Virus record (IMG/VR): IMGVR_UViG_2737471855_000016
Span: 1-11,988 of that record
Reading direction: 5' to 3' (one strand)
Source of the DNA: a virus
Lineage: Duplodnaviria; Heunggongvirae; Uroviricota; Caudoviricetes
Length of the DNA stretch: 11,988 nt
Shown here piece by piece: positions 1-6,136 of the stretch (position 1 is its first letter; the number at the start of each line of letters is the position of its first letter). Under the pieces are notes generated by a model, which saw only the letters and a program-made list of their open reading frames with translations, made no database searches and was not told the origin of the DNA. A program made the position numbers and the translations under genes.

Positions 1-900
1 ATGAAGCGTGAAGAAATCGCTGATCTGATGGCGTTTGTCGTCGTTGCAGAGGAGCGTAGCTTCACTCGTGCAGCAGCCCGCCTGAGCATGGCGCAGTCAG
101 CTTTAAGCCAGATAGTGCGTCGTATAGAAGAACGATTGGGATTGCGGCTTCTGACGCGAACCACGCGCAGCGTTGTTCCAACTGAAGCGGGCGAGCATCT
201 TTTGTCTGTTCTTGGCCCTATGTTGCATGACATAGATTCAGCCATGGCATCCCTGAGCGATCTGCAGAACCGCCCATCCGGGACAATACGTATTACTACT
301 GTAGAACATGCAGCAAAAACGATATTGTTACCAGCAATGCGCACATTCCTGAAATCGCATCCTGAAATTGATATTCAGCTCACCATTGATTATGGTTTGA
401 CCGATGTCGTTTCTGAACGTTTTGATGCAGGCGTCCGTCTGGGTGGGGAGATGGATAAAGATATGATCGCCATTCGAATCGGGCCAGATATACCAATGGC
501 TATTGTTGGCTCACCGGATTATTTTTCTCGCCGAAGTGTTCCAACGTCAGTGTCACAATTAATAGATCATCAGGCAATTAATTTGTATCTTCCCACATCG
601 GGTACAGCAAATCGCTGGAGATTAATACGCGGTGGACGTGAAGTTCGTGTTCGCATGGAAGGTCAGCTTTTACTGAATACGATAGACCTGATCATTGATG
701 CTGCAATTGATGGGCATGGATTGGCGTATCTACCTTATGATCAGGTTGAGCGGGCTATTAAAGAAAAAAAACTGATACGTGTTTTGGATAAATTCACACC
801 AGATTTACCCGGTTATCACCTGTACTATCCACACCGTCGACATGCTGGCTCGGCATTCTCATTATTTATAGATAGGCTGAAGTATAAAGGTGCTGTTTAG
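1..900 (+). CDS. LysR-family transcriptional regulator (host gene flanking the island)
   Basis: 299-aa ORF starting at base 1 with a typical LysR N-terminal HTH (FVVVAEERSFTRAAARLSMAQSALSQ...) and a LysR-type co-inducer domain length. GC content looks higher than in the region that follows. Confidence 0.9.
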   Translation: MKREEIADLMAFVVVAEERSFTRAAARLSMAQSALSQIVRRIEERLGLRLLTRTTRSVVPTEAGEHLLSVLGPMLHDIDSAMASLSDLQNRPSGTIRITTVEHAAKTILLPAMRTFLKSHPEIDIQLTIDYGLTDVVSERFDAGVRLGGEMDKDMIAIRIGPDIPMAIVGSPDYFSRRSVPTSVSQLIDHQAINLYLPTSGTANRWRLIRGGREVRVRMEGQLLLNTIDLIIDAAIDGHGLAYLPYDQVERAIKEKKLIRVLDKFTPDLPGYHLYYPHRRHAGSAFSLFIDRLKYKGAV

Positions 901-1327
901 CACTACTTGCTGATACATTAATTTAATTCTTCTCTTAACGTATTCTCAGTTCCTTTCAACGTTTTGGTCATTTTTTATTCTTCGTACAATGGCGACAGAT
1001 GCTGATTATGATACCGAAAACGGGTTTGAACGTGCGAAGCCCGAACGTAGTGTTCGGAGTTCTATGTGCTTTACCGCATTTTGGAGACTATTATTTACAC
1101 TAAATCTGATTTGATATATTGATACTTAAAACATTTGATGCTTCCTTTGTCACTTTTTGGATGTAGGGTACATTTCTTACCTGTTTGTATGTTCTGGTGT
1201 CGTTTCATAGTCTTTTCAATGAGTTGTGATTTTATGAGTTTCCTCTCTTTGCTTGATAATGAGTTAGTTTATCGCTTGTTATTGGCTTGAATGGACTACA
1301 TGACGGACTAAAAAATGAGGGCGATAG

Positions 1328-2566
1328 ATGTCGGTAAAGCCATTAACCGTGACTGAAGTTAAGGGGATGAAACCACGTGAAAAGGACTATGCCGTTTATG
1401 ATGGGTTCGGTTTATTGCTGAATGTGAGTAAAGCCGGTGGGAAAGTGTGGCGTTTCCGTTATAGCCATCCGATAACGAAGAAACGGCAGACATACACGAT
1501 AGGACGTTTTCCTGAATTCTCACTCGCGGAAGCACGGGAAGTACGTGATGAACTTCGGCGAATGATTGCACGTGGAGTTGATCCAGTGACGGAGAAGAAA
1601 AATCGTAAAATTGAGATGTCACTAAAAAATCTACAGACATTTGAAGCTGTTGCTAATGCATGGTTCGCTTTTAAAAAGGGATCTGAATTGCGGAAACCTA
1701 CGCTGTATAATATCGAATATGAAGTATACAAATATCTTGTTCCTTTCTTTGGTAAGTACAGTATAGAAAAAATTACAGCACCAGTAGCTATTAATGCTCT
1801 GGATGCCGTATCCGATAAGAATGCGTTGCAAAAAAAATTAATATCAAGATTAAATGAAATTATGAATTATGCTGTAAATTGTGGAACATTGAAAACAAAT
1901 CCATTACTTAAGATAAAGACTGCATTCACAGGAAAGAAAAATAAATCATTAGCAGCACTACCTGTTGAAAGATTGCCTGAATTTCTGAGCTGGTGGGATA
2001 GTGTGCCTCATACCTATCAAATAGCTCATAATGCACTTTTATTCCAGATATTGACAATGGTCAGGCCAGGTGAGGCGATTAAAGCAGAGTGGTCAGAGAT
2101 TGATTTTGATTCTGGCTTGTGGATTATCCCCGCGCATAAAATGAAATGCCATCGTGAACATGTTGTTCCCTTGTCATCACAGGCTATTAGTATCCTCAGA
2201 ACAATGCAGGAAATAAAAAGAGGGCGTTATGTGTTTTTTTCCTCCAGAACAAAAGATGCGCCTATGGGGAGGAATACTATCAAGACCCCAATTGCTGCCA
2301 GCAAGTTCAAAGGGATTGTAACGTTACATGGTTTTCGTTCAATGTGGAGTACGCTTTTAAATGAGGAGGGATTTAACCCCGATGTAATCGAGGCTGCATT
2401 GGCGCATAAAAGTGGTGATAAAATAAGAGATATTTATAATAGAACTATTTATCTAGAACAGCGTAAGATCATGATGCAATGGGTCGGTGATTTTTTTGAT
2501 GATGCGAGAAAAGGGGTAATTAATAGATCCGGTGGTATGAAAGGTTTAAGAGTTGTAAATGGTTGA
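1328..2566 (+). CDS. int: Tyrosine site-specific integrase, P4/CP4-57 type
   Basis: 412-aa ORF with the P4-type N-terminal arm-binding pattern (KDYAVYDGFGLLLNVSKAGGKVWRFRY) and the C-terminal catalytic region (HGFRSMWSTLL...IRDIYNR). SD-like GAGGG lies 6 nt upstream of the ATG. Confidence 0.93.
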   Translation: MSVKPLTVTEVKGMKPREKDYAVYDGFGLLLNVSKAGGKVWRFRYSHPITKKRQTYTIGRFPEFSLAEAREVRDELRRMIARGVDPVTEKKNRKIEMSLKNLQTFEAVANAWFAFKKGSELRKPTLYNIEYEVYKYLVPFFGKYSIEKITAPVAINALDAVSDKNALQKKLISRLNEIMNYAVNCGTLKTNPLLKIKTAFTGKKNKSLAALPVERLPEFLSWWDSVPHTYQIAHNALLFQILTMVRPGEAIKAEWSEIDFDSGLWIIPAHKMKCHREHVVPLSSQAISILRTMQEIKRGRYVFFSSRTKDAPMGRNTIKTPIAASKFKGIVTLHGFRSMWSTLLNEEGFNPDVIEAALAHKSGDKIRDIYNRTIYLEQRKIMMQWVGDFFDDARKGVINRSGGMKGLRVVNG

Positions 2567-2579
2567 GGAGGTTCAGCAA

Positions 2580-2783
2580 ATGAATACCAATGAAGATATT
2601 TTATTTACTAAAGACGTAATGAAAATCTTGCGATATGGAGCAATGAGTGCATTCATCAATTTCTGGAAAGATGAGAATAATGGTTTTCCTCAGCCGTTCA
2701 GAATTGGACGACGACATACCTGGCACCGTAGAGATGTAGAAGCATGGTTAGATAAACAACGAGAACAAGCCAATCCCCACTAA
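2580..2783 (+). CDS. alpA: AlpA/excisionase-like HTH regulator
   Basis: Small ORF directly after int with the AlpA/Xis-like pattern (ILRYGAMSAF...GFPQPFRIGRRHTWHRRDVEAWL). A strong SD (GAGGAGG) sits 8 nt upstream of the ATG at 2580. An alternative in-frame ATG at 2559 overlaps the int stop (ATGGTTGA). Confidence 0.7.
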   Translation: MNTNEDILFTKDVMKILRYGAMSAFINFWKDENNGFPQPFRIGRRHTWHRRDVEAWLDKQREQANPH

Positions 2784-2796
2784 TAATATCTTTCAT

Positions 2797-2822
2797 ACCC
2801 CGCGTGCAATGCGGGGTTTTTT
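2797..2822 (+). terminator. Rho-independent terminator after alpA
   Basis: Stem ACCCCGC / GCGGGGT with a 7-nt loop, followed by TTTTTT. Confidence 0.7.
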
Positions 2823-2937
2823 GTATGTGAGGTAAAAAAGAAATGAATAAAAATATTGCCGTGACGGGCAAGGGTGACGCACGTCATGTAAAAAAATCTG
2901 TGATTTTCGTGATCTGGTCGTTCTGCGCTTTGATAGT

Positions 2938-3420
2938 GTGAACGTTCGCGTGGTGTATCTGAACGGCGATCCGTGGTTTGTTGCAAAGGATGTCTGCGCT
3001 GCGCTGGAACTGACCAATTCGCGTACGGCGTTGCAGATGCTTGATGATGATGAAAAGGGAGTAAATTTAACTTACACCCCAGGAGGAAATCAGAATATGA
3101 GCATTATCTCTGAGTCAGGTTTCTACAAACTAATAGCCCGTAGCCGCAAAGCAACGACGCAAGGCACATTCGCCCATCGTTTCAGTAACTGGGTATTCAG
3201 AAATGTGATACCGGGTATCAGAAAAACGGGGGCTTATGGTATCCCGTGGGGTGCATTACAGGATTTTTCCCGCCGCAAAGAGCAATACCAGATAAGTGCC
3301 AGCGAGAAGGGGAGGGCGCTACAGGCATGTAAGCGCAAAAAACGTGAACTGGAGGAAGAAGAAAAAAGGCTGATACGTGAATATCAGCCTGAGTTTTACT
3401 TTGGTGAGCGTATTCAGTAA
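2938..3420 (+). CDS. Bro-N domain protein (antirepressor-type), N-terminus apparently disrupted or frameshifted
   Basis: Strong Bro-N pattern (VRVVYLNGDPWFVAKDVCAALEL...LDDDEKGV...TPGGNQNMSIISESGFYKLI...FSNWVFRNVIPGIRKTGAY). The GTG at 2938 has no SD. In-frame codons upstream (DLVVLRFDSV) still look like the first Bro-N strand but have no canonical start. See the finding at 2843-2941. Confidence 0.75.
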   Translation: MNVRVVYLNGDPWFVAKDVCAALELTNSRTALQMLDDDEKGVNLTYTPGGNQNMSIISESGFYKLIARSRKATTQGTFAHRFSNWVFRNVIPGIRKTGAYGIPWGALQDFSRRKEQYQISASEKGRALQACKRKKRELEEEEKRLIREYQPEFYFGERIQ

Positions 3421-3576
3421 CCACACGCGGTGCTGATTATACGGTACATCGTGTTAACCGAGAAGCTACCCACCAGCAAGGCAAAATCTTCTGCTAAAAA
3501 ATGACATATAGCCCGTCGTCCGGAAAGCATGAAATTTTACAAAAATGGAAAATGAAGATTTTTATTGTGCTGGTGG

Positions 3577-3609
3577 GTAAAAACAAAAAGCGCCCCGTTG
3601 CCGGAGCGC
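3577..3609 (-). terminator. Minus-strand intrinsic terminator (distal)
   Basis: On the minus strand: GCGCTCCG, GCAA loop, CGGGGCGC, then TTTTTGTTTTT. Confidence 0.55.
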
Positions 3610-3704
3610 CCTTGCGAACAATTAACCTGCTGCGAAAAAATTGGATCAGTGCAGGGGAATTATATCAACTGTGTGAAGAAGCGCCACAATTGCCGGATAA
3701 CAGG

Positions 3705-3733
3705 CAAAGAAAAGGCCACCTGTCACGGTGGCC
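3705..3733 (-). terminator. Minus-strand intrinsic terminator (proximal) after the lipoprotein ORF
   Basis: Perfect 7-bp stem GGCCACC / GGTGGCC with a 6-nt loop, followed on the minus strand by TTTTCTTTG. Confidence 0.65.
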
Positions 3734-3863
3734 CTTCAACACAAATTGCGCGTTATCCCCAACGCATGAGCATCGCCAACAATGCCATATTTGCGGCTGG
3801 TGGGCAAAGCCTGAGCGATCCTGTGATTACAGGAACTACGGCATTGTCTCGGTTAGGTAGTGC

Positions 3864-4016
3864 TCAACTTTTTTTCAACTCTACATCGCAAGCACGCCGT
3901 AATAAATCGCCCTTATCGTTTGAGCAAAGACTATTTTTCTCAAAGCATGATATTAAGAGAAAGATTGTGATAATTAAAGCAACCATCATTGGTACATGTT
4001 TTTTTAATTTTAACAT
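3864..4016 (-). CDS. Small predicted lipoprotein (50 aa), not in the ORF track
   Basis: Manual minus-strand translation gives MLKLKKHVPMMVALIITIFLLISCFEKNSLCSNDKGDLLRRACDVELKKS: basic n-region, hydrophobic h-region and an L-I-S-C lipobox. AGGAG sits 6 nt upstream of the ATG. It lies 54 nt downstream of the RHH gene ending at 4071 and is followed by two terminators. Confidence 0.5.
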   Translation of the reverse strand: MLKLKKHVPMMVALIITIFLLISCFEKNSLCSNDKGDLLRRACDVELKKS

Positions 4017-4070
4017 CTTTTACTCCTATGATTGCCGCCGCGATTCCCCACACCACGGCGCTGGTGGTTT

Positions 4071-4376
4071 TTATTCTGATTCTTTGGCCTTGCGGCGCTG
4101 TAGTTCTTCACGAGCGATGGCGATAAGTTGCCCGAGTTCTTCCGTAGCTTTAATACCAATTTTTTCCACTTGCGCCAATGCATCGAGAGAAGAAATCAGA
4201 GGATTTTCACTGCTTCCTTCTGCTTGGCGGCGGGCGATCTCCCCGCGCATGGCGGTTACTATGAATCCGGCGTTGCTTTCGCCGTCCAGTTTTACGGATT
4301 CCATGCCATCAAAAGCATCATGTGGGATACGAATTGAAATCTGTTTTGATTTGTCGTTGATAGTGTTTTTTGCCAT
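4071..4376 (-). CDS. Arc/Mnt-like ribbon-helix-helix DNA-binding protein (101 aa), paralog 1
   Basis: N-terminus KSKQISIRIPHDAFDGMESVKLDGESNAGFIVTAMRGEI matches the RHH strand-helix-helix pattern. The start is taken at the second ATG (4376), spaced 6 nt from AGGAGA; the ORF-track start at 4415 has no SD. The C-terminal tail RRKAKESE is shared with paralog 2. Confidence 0.75.
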   Translation of the reverse strand: MAKNTINDKSKQISIRIPHDAFDGMESVKLDGESNAGFIVTAMRGEIARRQAEGSSENPLISSLDALAQVEKIGIKATEELGQLIAIAREELQRRKAKESE

Positions 4377-4398
4377 GTGCATTCTCCTAAACAAAAGA

Positions 4399-4475
4399 TG
4401 TGATTCAGTATACACAAAAAAGAATCACAAAAAACACTTTACCTGTGATTCAGTTGAATTTAATTTAAATCACAC
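4399..4475. promoter_or_regulatory. Promoter/operator region of RHH paralog 1 with TGTGATTC / GAATCACA inverted repeats
   Basis: TGTGATTC at 4399-4406 and 4444-4451 with inverted partners GAATCACA at 4422-4429 and AATCACA at 4468-4474. A minus-strand -10-like TATACT is the reverse complement of 4407-4412. The -35 is not convincing. Confidence 0.5.
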
Positions 4476-4500
4476 CTCAGTAAGAGGATGTAAACGACAA

Positions 4501-4532
4501 CGCCCCGAACTGTTTGCGGCAGTAGCGGGGCG
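4501..4532 (-). terminator. Candidate minus-strand terminator/hairpin separating the two RHH units
   Basis: GC stem CGCCCCG / CGGGGCG with an 18-nt loop; on the minus strand it is followed by TTGTCGTTT, a weak U-tract. Confidence 0.35.
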
Positions 4533-4652
4533 TCTAACCAAACCATTAATTGAGGTAACGATTATGGCTATAAAAGAGCATAGCTTACTCTTTATACACA
4601 CACAAACGCCCCGGAAACGGAATAATCCGTTTCATAGTTCGGTTTTGTGCAC

Positions 4653-4880
4653 TCATCCTGGCGGTCGGTTTTTGCCGGATTTAAGCCGCCGTGGGTATTT
4701 ATCGACAAAATCTTCAAGGGCAAATTTTTCTGGTGGCACTAAGCGCGGCGCTGGTGGTGGTATTTTTGTTCTGGTTAGTTCTTCCTCAAGTCTGGCGCAG
4801 GCTTCTGACTGCCTTTGCCGGATGATTTCATCATCTTGCGTTTGCGTGTCTTGTATTGGTGATAGTGTGTTGTTGGTCAT
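4653..4880 (-). CDS. Hypothetical protein (75 aa), second gene of the RHH paralog-2 unit
   Basis: ORF with an AGGG SD-like motif 6 nt upstream, 57 nt downstream of the RHH gene at 4938-5117. Acidic N-terminus and a Pro-rich segment (PPPAPRLVPP). No family recognised. Confidence 0.55.
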   Translation of the reverse strand: MTNNTLSPIQDTQTQDDEIIRQRQSEACARLEEELTRTKIPPPAPRLVPPEKFALEDFVDKYPRRLKSGKNRPPG

Positions 4881-4937
4881 GATACTGCCCTGTAAAGCAA
4901 TGCGCCGTAGTACCTCACACCACGGCGCTGATAGTGA

Positions 4938-5117
4938 TTATTCTGATTCTTTGGTCTTGCGGCGCTGGCGGCGTTTGATCTCGCCTCGCATGGCTGTAAC
5001 GATAAATTGCGCAGTGCTCTCGCCTGTTTCTTTTACTTGCTCCATAGCCTCAACAACTTCATGCGGGGCGCGAGCCTGTAATTTCTGTGATTTGTTATTG
5101 ATATGGTCTCTTTCCAT
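4938..5117 (-). CDS. Arc/Mnt-like ribbon-helix-helix DNA-binding protein (59 aa), paralog 2; below the ORF-track size cutoff
   Basis: Manual translation gives MERDHINNKSQKLQARAPHEVVEAMEQVKETGESTAQFIVTAMRGEIKRRQRRKTKESE. From memory it is strikingly similar in pattern to P22 Arc (strand, helix A, G-x-S turn, helix B). An AAGGGA SD-like motif lies upstream. It is divergent from the replication operon. Confidence 0.7.
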   Translation of the reverse strand: MERDHINNKSQKLQARAPHEVVEAMEQVKETGESTAQFIVTAMRGEIKRRQRRKTKESE

Positions 5118-5138
5118 TTCTGGTTCCCTTTGTGATTA

Positions 5139-5217
5139 CTGGAATCCAGTATACACGAAAAAGACCAAAACAAAACGCTTGAAGTGGATTCCACTTAGTG
5201 ATTATACTGGAATCCAG
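5139..5217. promoter_or_regulatory. Divergent promoter/operator region between RHH paralog 2 and the replication operon
   Basis: Near-palindromes CTGGAATCCAG (5139-5149, 5207-5217) and GTGGATTCCAC (5185-5195). Plus-strand candidate promoter: TTGAAG (5179-5184), 18-bp spacer, TATACT (5203-5208). Minus-strand -10-like TATACT is the reverse complement of 5148-5153. Confidence 0.5.
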
Positions 5218-5313
5218 CTGAGTGTTTATCACTCAATGCAAACGAGGCTGAAAAGGATTGCCGTCCTTTCGCAGCCTCTGACCACCAACGATAGCGAAAG
5301 TATCGAGGTAGCT

Positions 5314-5517
5314 ATGAGAAATCATATCACACACCCGCAAGGGCGGGACTCACACAACCTGAATAAATACATCTGGCGTTTTATCGCCCTGAGCACGGCA
5401 CAACCGCGCGTAATCCACATCGAGGCCACCAGCGAACAGGAAGCACGCCAGCAATCCCCGGCTGGCTGCGTGATGGTATTCGCTGCCCGTATTCGTCAGG
5501 AGGTGTGCCATGCCTGA
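5314..5517 (+). CDS. Hypothetical small protein (67 aa), first gene of the replication operon
   Basis: ATG preceded by GAGGT at about 6 nt. Its stop overlaps the next start (ATGCCTGA). It shares a frame with the long spurious 3565-5517 ORF, so only this 3' segment is taken as real. Confidence 0.4.
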   Translation: MRNHITHPQGRDSHNLNKYIWRFIALSTAQPRVIHIEATSEQEARQQSPAGCVMVFAARIRQEVCHA

Positions 5518-5830
5518 CATGACCAATTACCAGTACCTGATTAATCCGCATTTTAACTGTGAGCATGATATTGCTAAAAAGGTTTATTCCGCTGCGGATG
5601 GGGCTACTAACAATATATCAATGGCTGTTGCGTCAATTGGTAGCCTGATGTGGCATGCGTCAGAAAATGAGGACTATGACGAAAAGGCCATGCGCATTGA
5701 TATGGGTAATATCGGTTTGTTACTGGCAATGCTTGGACATTTTGATATTTCGTTACGGTGCACCATTGAAAATGCCACAGATGCATTAAATGCTATAAAG
5801 AAAGCGAATACTGATTCAAATCGGGGATAA
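5510..5830 (+). CDS. Hypothetical protein (106 aa)
   Basis: Strong SD (AGGAGG) 6 nt upstream of the ATG; translationally coupled to the upstream ORF. No family recognised. Confidence 0.7.
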   Translation: MPDMTNYQYLINPHFNCEHDIAKKVYSAADGATNNISMAVASIGSLMWHASENEDYDEKAMRIDMGNIGLLLAMLGHFDISLRCTIENATDALNAIKKANTDSNRG

Positions 5831-5836
5831 ATAATC

Positions 5837-6136
5837 ATGAGAACGTATTTATCTGGCTTGACTGCCAGCGGTTATGCACACCCTAAAATTGTCCCCGGCG
5901 CTATTTATCTGGATAAGAACGGTAACAGAGTAACGGTAAAAAAACTGATGTTTGACCGTGTGTATTTTATCCGTGATGGCTATTCATTTCTTAGTTCGCT
6001 GAACGTGGAGATCTTTATTTGCAGATTCCGGCGGGAAATCCCGACTTTCAGAAATAACCGTGTGTCACGTGTGGATGTGGATAAAAAACTACAGGAACTG
6101 AAAAACATGATTGCCGCGTGGAGAGAGCAGAAATGA
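5837..6136 (+). CDS. Hypothetical protein (99 aa)
   Basis: GGGGA SD-like motif upstream; its stop overlaps the primase start (ATGA at 6133-6136). Confidence 0.6.
   Translation: MRTYLSGLTASGYAHPKIVPGAIYLDKNGNRVTVKKLMFDRVYFIRDGYSFLSSLNVEIFICRFRREIPTFRNNRVSRVDVDKKLQELKNMIAAWREQK

Follow-up and report, generated by a model that had tools for sequence, protein, structure and literature searches.

The stretch of DNA analysed here (the window, 11,988 nt) is IMG/VR record IMGVR_UViG_2737471855_000016, positions 1 to 11,988, a Caudoviricetes entry. It is a phage satellite of Escherichia coli of the type of the Gram-negative phage-inducible chromosomal islands (PICIs), and its leftward genes probably make up the immunity/regulatory zone. 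This zone holds two minus-strand units, A and B. In each of them a gene for a ribbon-helix-helix (RHH) protein, RHH-A or RHH-B, is followed by a spacer with a hairpin and then by a small open reading frame (ORF), lipo50 in unit A and p75 in unit B (Table 1). This common layout had been recognised in a preliminary description of the same DNA, and all of its features were found again where they had been placed. We consider it probable that each unit is an immunity module, consisting of an RHH repressor of the YlcI/YnfO family and three or four operators of its own, and that the two units are stacked alleles in the regulatory zone of the PICI.

Table 1. Features of the window, followed by four loci used for comparison with positions in their own records (SD, Shine-Dalgarno sequence; PGAP, Prokaryotic Genome Annotation Pipeline)
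Feature	Position	Strand	Detail
Tyrosine integrase gene (int)	1328-2566		PGAP annotation
AlpA-like helix-turn-helix gene	2580-2783		PGAP annotation
BRO-N gene	2938-3420		Frameshifted, pseudogene (PGAP); intact in L002 and L004
Open frame of 650 codons	3565..5517	+	Antisense to the four leftward genes and both control regions
Second terminator	3613-3586	-	Terminator scan; resembles those directly after RHH in several loci of other genera
First intrinsic terminator after unit A	3706..3733	-	GGCCACC-gtgaca-GGTGGCC TTTTCTTT; read from the sequence
lipo50	3864..4016	-	50-aa ORF; ORF list
Unit A spacer	4017..4070	-	54 nt; hairpin CGCCGUG...CGCGGCG at 4060-4036; good SD (AGGAG) for the 50-aa ORF
RHH-A	4071..4376	-	101 aa from ATG; ORF list
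Unit A control region	4399..4476	.	Four AATCACA-core sites
AATCACA-core sites	4399-4408, 4422-4429, 4443-4453 (CTGTGATTCAG), 4467-4476
Unit A leftward -10	4407-4412		TATACT; predicted
Relic rightward P_icd' -35	4438-4443		TTTACC; TTGACC in L002, L052, L055
Relic icd leader hairpin	4491..4530	-	CGCCCCG...CGGGGCG then TTGTCGTTT; 99% identical to L002 icd leader
Relic 5' end of Icd-like gene	4564..4610	+	ATGGCT, about 14 recognisable codons MAIKEHSLLFIHTQT, with SD; alignment with L002 icd'
p75	4653..4880	-	75-aa ORF; ORF list; hypothetical in PGAP
Unit B spacer	4881..4937	-	57 nt; hairpin at 4928-4902; weaker hairpin 4901-4884
RHH-B	4938..5117	-	59 aa; candidate active immunity repressor; ORF list
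Unit B control region	5139..5217	.	Three operators and promoters
O3	5139-5149		CTGGAATCCAG
Unit B leftward -10	5148-5153		TATACT; predicted
Rightward P_icd	5179-5184 and 5203-5208	+	TTGAAG-18-TATACT; promoter scan
O2	5184-5194		GTGGATTCCAC
Second leftward promoter	5228-5201		TAAACA-16-TATAAT; promoter scan
O1	5207-5217		CTGGAATCCAG
Leader hairpin of active Icd-like gene	5244..5278	+	GAGGCTG...CAGCCTC; position same as that of the relic at 4491-4530
Icd-like gene	5314..5517	+	Opens the rightward replication operon; PGAP
Unit C of L003	3468-3923	-	Classical 64-aa RHH, then hairpin spacer, then 67-aa p75 homologue
Stack of L054	3300-3663		Further relic leader, promoter, 58-aa ORF
L051	2700-3237		Hairpin spacer ahead of non-RHH 67-aa gene, divergent from Ash-family gene
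ylcI of K-12 (L062)	8252-8446		About 390 nt from nohD, with a lambda-type cos sequence in between

The pattern STGGAWTCCAS occurs three times in the window (0.02 expected), each time within 5139-5217. O2 sits in the spacer of the predicted rightward promoter P_icd, O1 overlaps the end of the P_icd -10 element and extends downstream of it, and O3 abuts the conserved leftward -10 element of unit B, immediately downstream. The second leftward promoter has O1 in its spacer, and its -10 element overlaps that of P_icd. In the control region of unit A, the four copies of the AATCACA-core 7-mer were matched by none of 200 shuffles; GAATCACA is present three times within 4399-4451 plus once elsewhere, with 0.63 occurrences expected window-wide. 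Each unit does have inverted-repeat operators of its own, as first proposed, and the repeated set of each, whose frequency is far above chance, overlaps its predicted promoter.

Near-copies of the type A operator lie outside the unit A promoter. The palindrome CCTGTAATCACAGG is located at 3822-3835, about 30 nt downstream of the lipo50 stop codon, and GTAATCACA at 5131-5139, immediately past O3 in the 5' untranslated region (5'UTR) of RHH-B. They may be additional RHH-A sites serving looping or cross-regulation, or evolutionary leftovers.

The position of the operators suggests how the module would work. RHH-B dimers would bind O1 and O2, within and just downstream of P_icd, and also O3, immediately downstream of the conserved leftward TATACT. 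Such binding would keep the satellite replication operon off and at the same time autoregulate RHH-B. It could be argued that RHH binds the repeats without repressing the replication operon, acting as an activator, as a Cro-like lytic regulator, or as an excision, packaging or partition factor. We regard this as improbable: O1, O2 and O3 are placed at P_icd and at the leftward -10 element in a way typical of promoter occlusion, and the leftward gene would be expressed without the rightward operon. DNA binding, repression, attenuation and any role of the open plus-strand frame are what we infer, with RHH as the immunity repressor of the satellite; what the analysis shows is the anatomy of the units, the fold and family of the regulators, the synteny, the co-variation of operator and beta-strand, the free assortment of the small ORFs and the history of stacking.

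Scanning of one genome per species has found 46 loci with the RHH gene in genera other than Escherichia (Serratia, Xenorhabdus, Pectobacterium, Dickeya, Proteus, Morganella, Yersinia, Cedecea, Citrobacter and others); about 55 loci were compared for architecture and operators. The RHH gene is divergent from the icd/DUF4222/primase or RepA genes in at least 28 of the 46 loci, and int lies on the other side of it in about 31. The window shows the same arrangement, which is the layout of a PICI master repressor: divergent from the replication operon, with the integrase gene opposite. Stl and Rpr, the repressors of the Staphylococcus aureus pathogenicity islands and Gram-positive PICIs, are likewise encoded leftward and divergently from a rightward replication operon, with int opposite and accessory genes between int and the repressor gene (PMC6092414). 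The RHH module described here shares this layout. Stl and Rpr are much larger proteins and belong to the helix-turn-helix type.

The intergenic region has one architecture everywhere: the icd SD, a long leader hairpin, O1, TATA, O2 and TCAAG (the -35 element of P_icd on the opposite strand), followed by about 25 T-rich nucleotides, gtgTATACTg, O3, SD and ATG. Most loci contain three operators with a common core, an exact 7-mer that recurs three times, near -100, -76 and -31 relative to the start codon; at most 3 of 200 shuffles equalled this.

Overall, the operator has the form of a roughly 11-bp site, (G/C)TG-N5-CA(C/G). Its core falls into at least 14 classes, which change together with the beta-strand of the RHH protein. 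QKLQARAP, the strand of RHH-B, goes with core CTGGATTCCAG and KQISIRIP, that of RHH-A, with TGAATCACA; the other pairs include QKMSARVP with CTGGCACCCA, KKLEARVP with GTGTCAGCCAC, QQLNARFP with GTGAATCGCAC, QMTTVRIP with GTGTATTTCAC, QTVAARVP with GTGTTGAACAC, QSVTARIA with GTGTCTTACAC and KRFDVRVP with GTGTCGGACA. QSLKSRVP/QALKARVP accompanies GTGTGGCCCAC in both Dryocola and E. coli. That the beta-strand diverges where the operators diverge had been noticed between the two units of the window, and it holds in the whole set of about 55 loci.

Judged by family models and by a predicted fold, RHH-A and RHH-B are ribbon-helix-helix proteins of the uncharacterised YlcI/YnfO family. Both pass NCBIfam model NF041551 (65.7 bits for RHH-A and 72.2 bits for RHH-B; cutoff 30) over model positions 1-42 of 42, and PGAP gives them one common name, that of the YlcI/YnfO family. 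RHH-A matches phrog_6522, a PHROG of unknown function, over its full length, and RHH-B likewise matches a PHROG of unknown function. At E <= 1, the sole Pfam match is PSK_trans_fac (E = 0.017 and 0.031, below its cutoff), and neither protein matches the Pfam Arc or Mnt-type models. Apart from YlcI/YnfO and this weak RHH antitoxin match, the four family-model libraries, which involved no comparison with an Stl sequence, returned no regulator family. The AlphaFold2 model of RHH, built with 27 homologues (predicted local distance difference test score 84.6), has an extended N-terminus and helices at 19-28 and 35-58, and its structural neighbours include the RHH antitoxins CopA_SO, TacA, VapB, ParD and HicB. 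This beta-strand-helix-helix topology, together with the likeness to solved RHH domains, is that of the ribbon-helix-helix (MetJ/Arc) superfamily. Searches of PDB sequences, whether by RHH-B on its own or by the family profile, yielded chance matches only. Thus the initial label "Arc-like RHH" is borne out at the level of the fold and fails as a statement about sequence family.

RHH-B has only about 9 residues beyond helix 2. In RHH-A, helix 2 is separated from the common RRKAKESE tail by an insertion of 42 residues (AEGSSENPLISSLDALAQVEKIGIKATEELGQLIAIAREELQ, at about residues 51-93). This insertion is reminiscent of the C-terminal oligomerisation extension that separates Mnt from Arc, and accompanies four operators instead of three. 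The whole module would operate in the manner of the Arc/Mnt-type RHH switch of phage P22 (immI), from which it differs by the lack of a sequence-family match and by three or four operators per control region. The gene regulated in P22 is that of an antirepressor, whereas here it would be the satellite replication operon starting with the Icd-like gene.

Previous knowledge of the family is scarce. No function of YlcI, YnfO or DUF3950 is published in the literature searched, which contains annotation-level mentions only; in PICIs and capsid-forming PICIs (cf-PICIs) the family appears just as an accessory annotation. The literature search combining RHH with PICI found nothing relevant, and among 50,697 phage genomes tblastn found no match to RHH-B. 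YlcI (prophage DLP12) and YnfO (Qin) of E. coli K-12, the namesakes of DUF3950/NF041551, are small mobile-element proteins, as are those of the window, which pass the family model. K-12 YlcI is distant from the satellite proteins (BLAST E = 2.1) and its gene adjoins cos and nohD in a lambdoid prophage, unlike the RHH gene of the window, divergent from the icd/primase operon. Since K-12 YlcI is distant and encoded beside nohD/cos, NF041551 joins at least two contexts, maybe with different functions.

The two units of the window share DNA at both ends of the RHH gene. Positions 4036-4100 and 4903-4967 are 85% identical over 65 nt spanning the RHH 3' end, the stop codon and the hairpin, in line with the conservation originally described for the 3' ends and spacers; the tails encoded in this repeat are RRKAKESE in RHH-A and RRKTKESE in RHH-B. 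The promoter/5'UTR segments (4403-4439 and 5144-5180) are 78% identical and the RHH 5' coding ends 77% identical, both at a spacing of 741 nt. Between these, the genes have diverged: identity is no more than 65% over the first 51 RHH codons, against 96% over the last 8. The operators, the beta-strand and the downstream ORF all differ between the units, and this too had been seen from the start.

Such a pattern could be expected if a single cassette had been duplicated in tandem on the spot and its copies had then diverged within the lineage of this island, and it was first described as a regulator-effector cassette "duplicated and diversified inside a satellite". The common layout, the homologous promoter/5'UTR and 3' ends, and the same reading phase of all ORFs of both units are in favour of duplication. 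The comparison with other islands already contradicts it. Region 3500-5600 of the window is 100% identical to E. coli RM10410, where the island occupies the chromosomal pgrR-mppA interval. Among the 5426 complete E. coli genomes compared, 1512 match at least some part of the 2.1-kb region around the module, and only 4 contain both units together. Each unit is 97-99% identical to the lone module of another island, divergent there from icd, which is to be set against 65% between the two RHH N-terminal coding regions. In island L002, where BRO and lipo50 accompany RHH-A, the divergent genes are another icd allele and a RepA-helicase operon; L004 equals the island of the window without 3812-4650 and has only p75 and RHH-B.

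Moreover, unit A still carries the relic promoter, leader and start codon of another Icd-like gene (icd'). Window positions 4377-4569 are 99% identical to the complete intergenic region of L002, including the leader hairpin, the SD and the ATGGCT start at 4564. About 14 icd' codons, in frame with the long plus-strand ORF, are retained before the junction with the end of p75. In L003 the identical relic junction lies to the left of unit B, but beyond it there is a third module, unit C, whose RHH protein shows no detectable similarity to YlcI; unit B has a different left-hand partner there. We find local duplication extremely unlikely on these grounds. Because L003 and L054 show independent stacks of other alleles, the tandem is best explained as recurrent recombinational stacking of already-diverged alleles.

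RHH-A, which is the lone divergent regulator in L002 and adjoins the icd region in L055, would accordingly be a displaced second repressor allele. Recombination between satellites with different alleles would have left the older, complete unit A behind the active unit B, with RHH-A as a second, orthogonal repressor that could repress incoming type A satellites as well as its own relic promoter. The -35 element of this relic promoter has a G-to-T change at 4440 in comparison with the islands whose promoter still drives icd (L002, L052 and L055). As far as the alignment goes, this single change fits a displaced promoter that has decayed or been silenced.

The hairpin after the RHH gene, the "conserved hairpin" of the preliminary description, folds in both units, but it is energetically exceptional only in unit B. 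In unit B it is formed by GCGCCGTGGT-loop GTGAGGT-ACTACGGCGC and was flagged as terminator-like; the RNA stem is GCGCCGUGGU/ACUACGGCGC with the loop GUGAGGU, and every variant folds into the same stem. The folding energy is -24.3 kcal/mol in unit B (z = -2.9 against shuffled sequences) and -15.2 kcal/mol in unit A (z = -0.6). For seven hairpin variants RNAalifold gave 9 consensus pairs with a single compensatory one; the covariation term is 0.02. Because covariation is essentially nil, we claim no structured RNA element beyond a leaky terminator. On the most economical reading, the spacer hairpin would be a T-poor leaky terminator which lowers the expression of the downstream ORF and at the same time supplies the homology through which modules are exchanged; the conserved RHH 3' end and the hairpin would then serve as an attenuator and as a crossover point for module shuffling. 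The weaker hairpin of unit B covers the region just upstream of the p75 start codon. A possible role of the hairpin as an integron attC-like recombination site was considered and dropped, with nothing found in its support.

The relic icd leader hairpin, as read on the minus strand, is placed to terminate the unit B transcript. The putative true terminators of the leftward transcript are those at 3733-3706 and 3613-3586. A long hairpin between the operators and the icd SD is seen in nearly every locus (L005-L059), with the stem kept and the sequence varying. On the opposite strand this leader hairpin resembles an intrinsic terminator, and in stacked islands it is found at the expected end of the transcript of the upstream module.

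The slot after the hairpin would hold alternative small ORFs, p75 or lipo50, co-transcribed with the repressor gene in the quiescent state. In the preliminary description these ORFs were seen as the effectors of a candidate undescribed, modular regulator-effector pair, placed as immunity, helper-interference or defence cargo would be. Such a two-gene system, be it toxin-antitoxin-like or of the abortive-infection/defence kind, would have RHH repress and also neutralise or control a cognate effector, and the pair would have duplicated and co-diversified. The order of an RHH gene and a small ORF behind a likely autoregulated promoter is indeed that of type II toxin-antitoxin operons with RHH antitoxins (CopG/ParD/VapB/TacA). 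RHH antitoxins are among the structural neighbours, the weak PSK_trans_fac match points the same way, the small ORFs are placed where quiescent-state cargo would be, and the p75 family keeps a conserved C-terminal motif.

The survey of gene contexts has already weakened this possibility. None of the 46 loci of other genera has a conserved ORF downstream of the RHH gene, which stands alone there, and many of them show an intrinsic terminator immediately behind the RHH stop codon. In E. coli, relatives of lipo50 are found downstream of four RHH alleles, namely RHH-A, RHH-B (L056), QALKARVP and QTVAARVP (L055-L058). Relatives of p75 follow RHH-B, an RHH-A-type allele with TGAATCACA operators (L052) and a QQKTARVP allele (L054), as well as the non-YlcI RHH of unit C in L003 and the non-RHH 67-aa gene of L051. 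The switch point between the ORFs is always the conserved RRKAKESE-stop-hairpin segment. At least 4-5 RHH alleles are found in free combination with the small ORFs, any one allele pairing with either ORF. The small ORFs would not be cognate partners of RHH; comparison of the homologous islands shows that the RHH gene and the small gene neither always co-occur nor swap together.

The proteins themselves give no better support to a toxin-antitoxin or defence pair. With about 9 residues after helix 2, RHH-B has no toxin-binding (neutralisation) domain, lipo50 is predicted to be exported and therefore beyond the reach of a cytoplasmic antitoxin, and the p75 model is a helix with a linker and not a toxin fold. 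Profile searches, which placed both RHH proteins in the uncharacterised YlcI/YnfO family, gave no significant match for p75 and lipo50 in Pfam, NCBIfam and PHROGs, so that no toxin family is recognised, and none of the four proteins matches a PADLOC-DB defence model (E <= 1). A new two-gene effector system, as specifically claimed, finds no support here, and we attach little probability to it; p75 and lipo50 would rather be accessory cargo. Lambda cI-rexAB offers a precedent for accessory genes co-transcribed downstream of an immunity repressor gene and expressed in the quiescent state. Cargo after the repressor is the feature in common, although p75 and lipo50 have no homology to known exclusion or defence proteins.

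Another possibility is that the small ORFs are not functional genes at all, the module being an RHH gene with a structured 3'UTR and the ORFs being kept by constraint on the opposite strand. The absence of any such ORF in other genera would fit this, and so would the position of all four leftward ORFs in one phase relative to an open plus-strand frame (see below). PGAP annotates nothing at lipo50 in 17 of its 18 matches and a longer hypothetical ORF in the remaining one, and lipo50 forms a single protein cluster. The ratio of nonsynonymous to synonymous substitution rates (dN/dS) is 1.0-1.4 for lipo50 and 0.82 for p75. These ratios are uninformative for the small ORFs, because the antisense open frame, which depresses dS, and mosaic recombination confound them.

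In p75, a variable N-terminal helix and a Pro-rich linker precede the conserved C-terminal motif KFALEDFVxKYPRRLKSGKNRPPG; the AlphaFold2 model has helices 9-39 and 55-61, i.e. a long helix, a linker and a short helix. A word-indexed search found the family in E. coli only. A profile search of 1.84 billion representatives gave 19 matches, of which the convincing ones are all short, and those that were read keep FALEDF.xKYPRRLK..KNRPPG behind very different N-termini. Relatives of p75 are 55-92 aa long, and in-frame indels occur. Retention of the C-terminal motif behind such different N-termini is the reason why p75 is regarded as a real protein, as far as sequence conservation can tell. lipo50 has an N-terminal signal/anchor and three conserved Cys, one of which, Cys24, is part of a LISC lipobox. 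The SD, the ATG, the hydrophobic segment and the three Cys are kept in copies whose DNA is 82-86% identical, with an in-frame 1-codon indel. Its coding status is plausible on this evidence. The lipobox is LISC in the window and LKSC or LLTC in the diverged alleles, with the Cys conserved. A canonical lipobox ([LVI][ASTVI][GAS]C) is confined to the allele of the window, and lipo50 is a possible small lipoprotein or membrane peptide. With these features of both families taken into account, we consider non-functional ORFs rather unlikely.

The plus strand opposite the two units is unusually open. The 650-codon frame, which ends as the Icd-like protein, is the same frame as that of BRO-N, and the four leftward genes share a single phase. 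The open frame is interrupted between 3421 and 5313 by just 2 stop codons (3502 and 3553), versus 41 and 41 in the other plus-strand frames. The same depletion is seen in 41 loci of other genera. Antisense to the RHH gene, 2800 codons of the frame contain 3 stops (163 and 211 in the two others); the figures are 37 for 2706 codons of the intergenic region (213 and 213) and 160 for 4059 codons past the RHH stop (296 and 298). The open spans in these genera are mostly 300-1300 nt long, more than half of them exceed 600 nt, and in several loci the start of the span is only a few nucleotides away from where the BRO match ends. By inspection, translation of the frame outside the RHH overlap looks unconserved; it seems that openness is maintained and not a protein.

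In satellite P4, a constitutive promoter and immunity determinants lie inside the Bro-network gene eta. Translation of full-length Eta requires transcripts from a late promoter further upstream, is coupled to the alpA homologue and prevents termination (PMC10111431, citing Forti et al., 1999). By analogy, the open frame may be an Eta-like translated corridor. Read-through transcripts from the upstream int/alpA/BRO genes would be translated across the leftward repressor modules, and translation would let them escape termination, overriding repression on induction as reported for P4 eta. The immunity of P4 (PLE, CI RNA and nested eta/kil) resembles that of the window in that an immunity determinant and the replication promoter lie inside a long ORF of the Bro zone. 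In P4, however, immunity is due to a cis-processed RNA, whereas the candidate in the window is a protein encoded on the opposite strand. No C4 or isrK RNA, nor other relevant RNA, was found in the whole window (Rfam, E <= 1).

The rest of the element agrees with its assignment to satellites, which had been made beforehand and is borne out by its gene content (int, alpA, BRO-N, Icd-like, primase, SSB and capsid genes). According to PGAP, the Icd-like gene is followed rightward by a hypothetical gene, DUF4222, primase, single-stranded DNA-binding protein (SSB) and a ClpP-protease/major-capsid fusion. The gene order agrees with the integration/Bro/replication/late layout reported for Gram-negative PICIs (PMC10111431). 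That paper assigns PICI immunity to the "Bro zone" and names RNA repressors only. In L002 (659-1663) and L004 (660-1658), a truncated prophage gene for the terminase large subunit is located directly ahead of the island, and because of this position both are considered to be helper-embedded PICIs. The integrase of the pgrR-mppA island is nearly identical by length and annotation to that of helper-embedded L002 and L004.

Just downstream of the primase gene, at 8023-8136, there is a long imperfect inverted repeat with reiterated GTTCACC/GAACAG motifs. This repeat is the source of spurious miRNA-precursor matches in Rfam. Its position is compatible with the placement of the PICI replication origin 3' of the replication gene (PMC6092414).

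Several points weigh against the repressor interpretation or parts of it. The promoters are consensus matches, and the proximal leftward promoter has a poor -35 element. The spacer hairpin is almost without covariation, and in unit A it is no more stable than shuffled sequence. The dN/dS values of the small ORFs are near or above 1. The idea of a translated corridor is drawn from stop-codon depletion and from the analogy with P4. Gram-negative PICIs have been described as unidirectionally transcribed and AlpA-activated, without a clear repressor (PMC6092414). Finally, no more than about 150 bp separate the operators from the codons of the beta-strand, and co-inheritance accounts for part of the association seen across loci. 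Yet the three sites are alike within a locus and differ between loci, and linkage alone is therefore insufficient; the concerted identity of the three sites within a locus is a stronger argument than the association across loci.

Taken together, these parts allow a wider proposal, which we put forward as tentative and, as a whole, rather doubtful. The YlcI/YnfO RHH proteins would be the hitherto unidentified master repressors of Gram-negative PICI-type satellites, with at least 14 orthogonal specificities. Their genes would lie antisense in an Eta-like corridor, where AlpA-driven read-through overrides repression. Stacks would protect against a second type of satellite, and the p75/lipo50 slot would hold quiescent-state cargo acting on helper or competing phages.

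Should the corridor be real, translation-dependent anti-termination across an immunity region would have a second example, here overlapping a protein gene of the opposite strand. The module itself combines a small leftward RHH gene with three operators that are allele-specific and bracket the promoter of the replication operon; it is present in many other Enterobacterales as well. A conserved leftward RHH repressor with many specificities would be a useful addition to what is known of PICI regulation: Gram-negative PICIs would gain an Stl-like switch, heteroimmunity between satellites would be explained, and the alleles would constitute a natural library of small orthogonal repressor/operator pairs.

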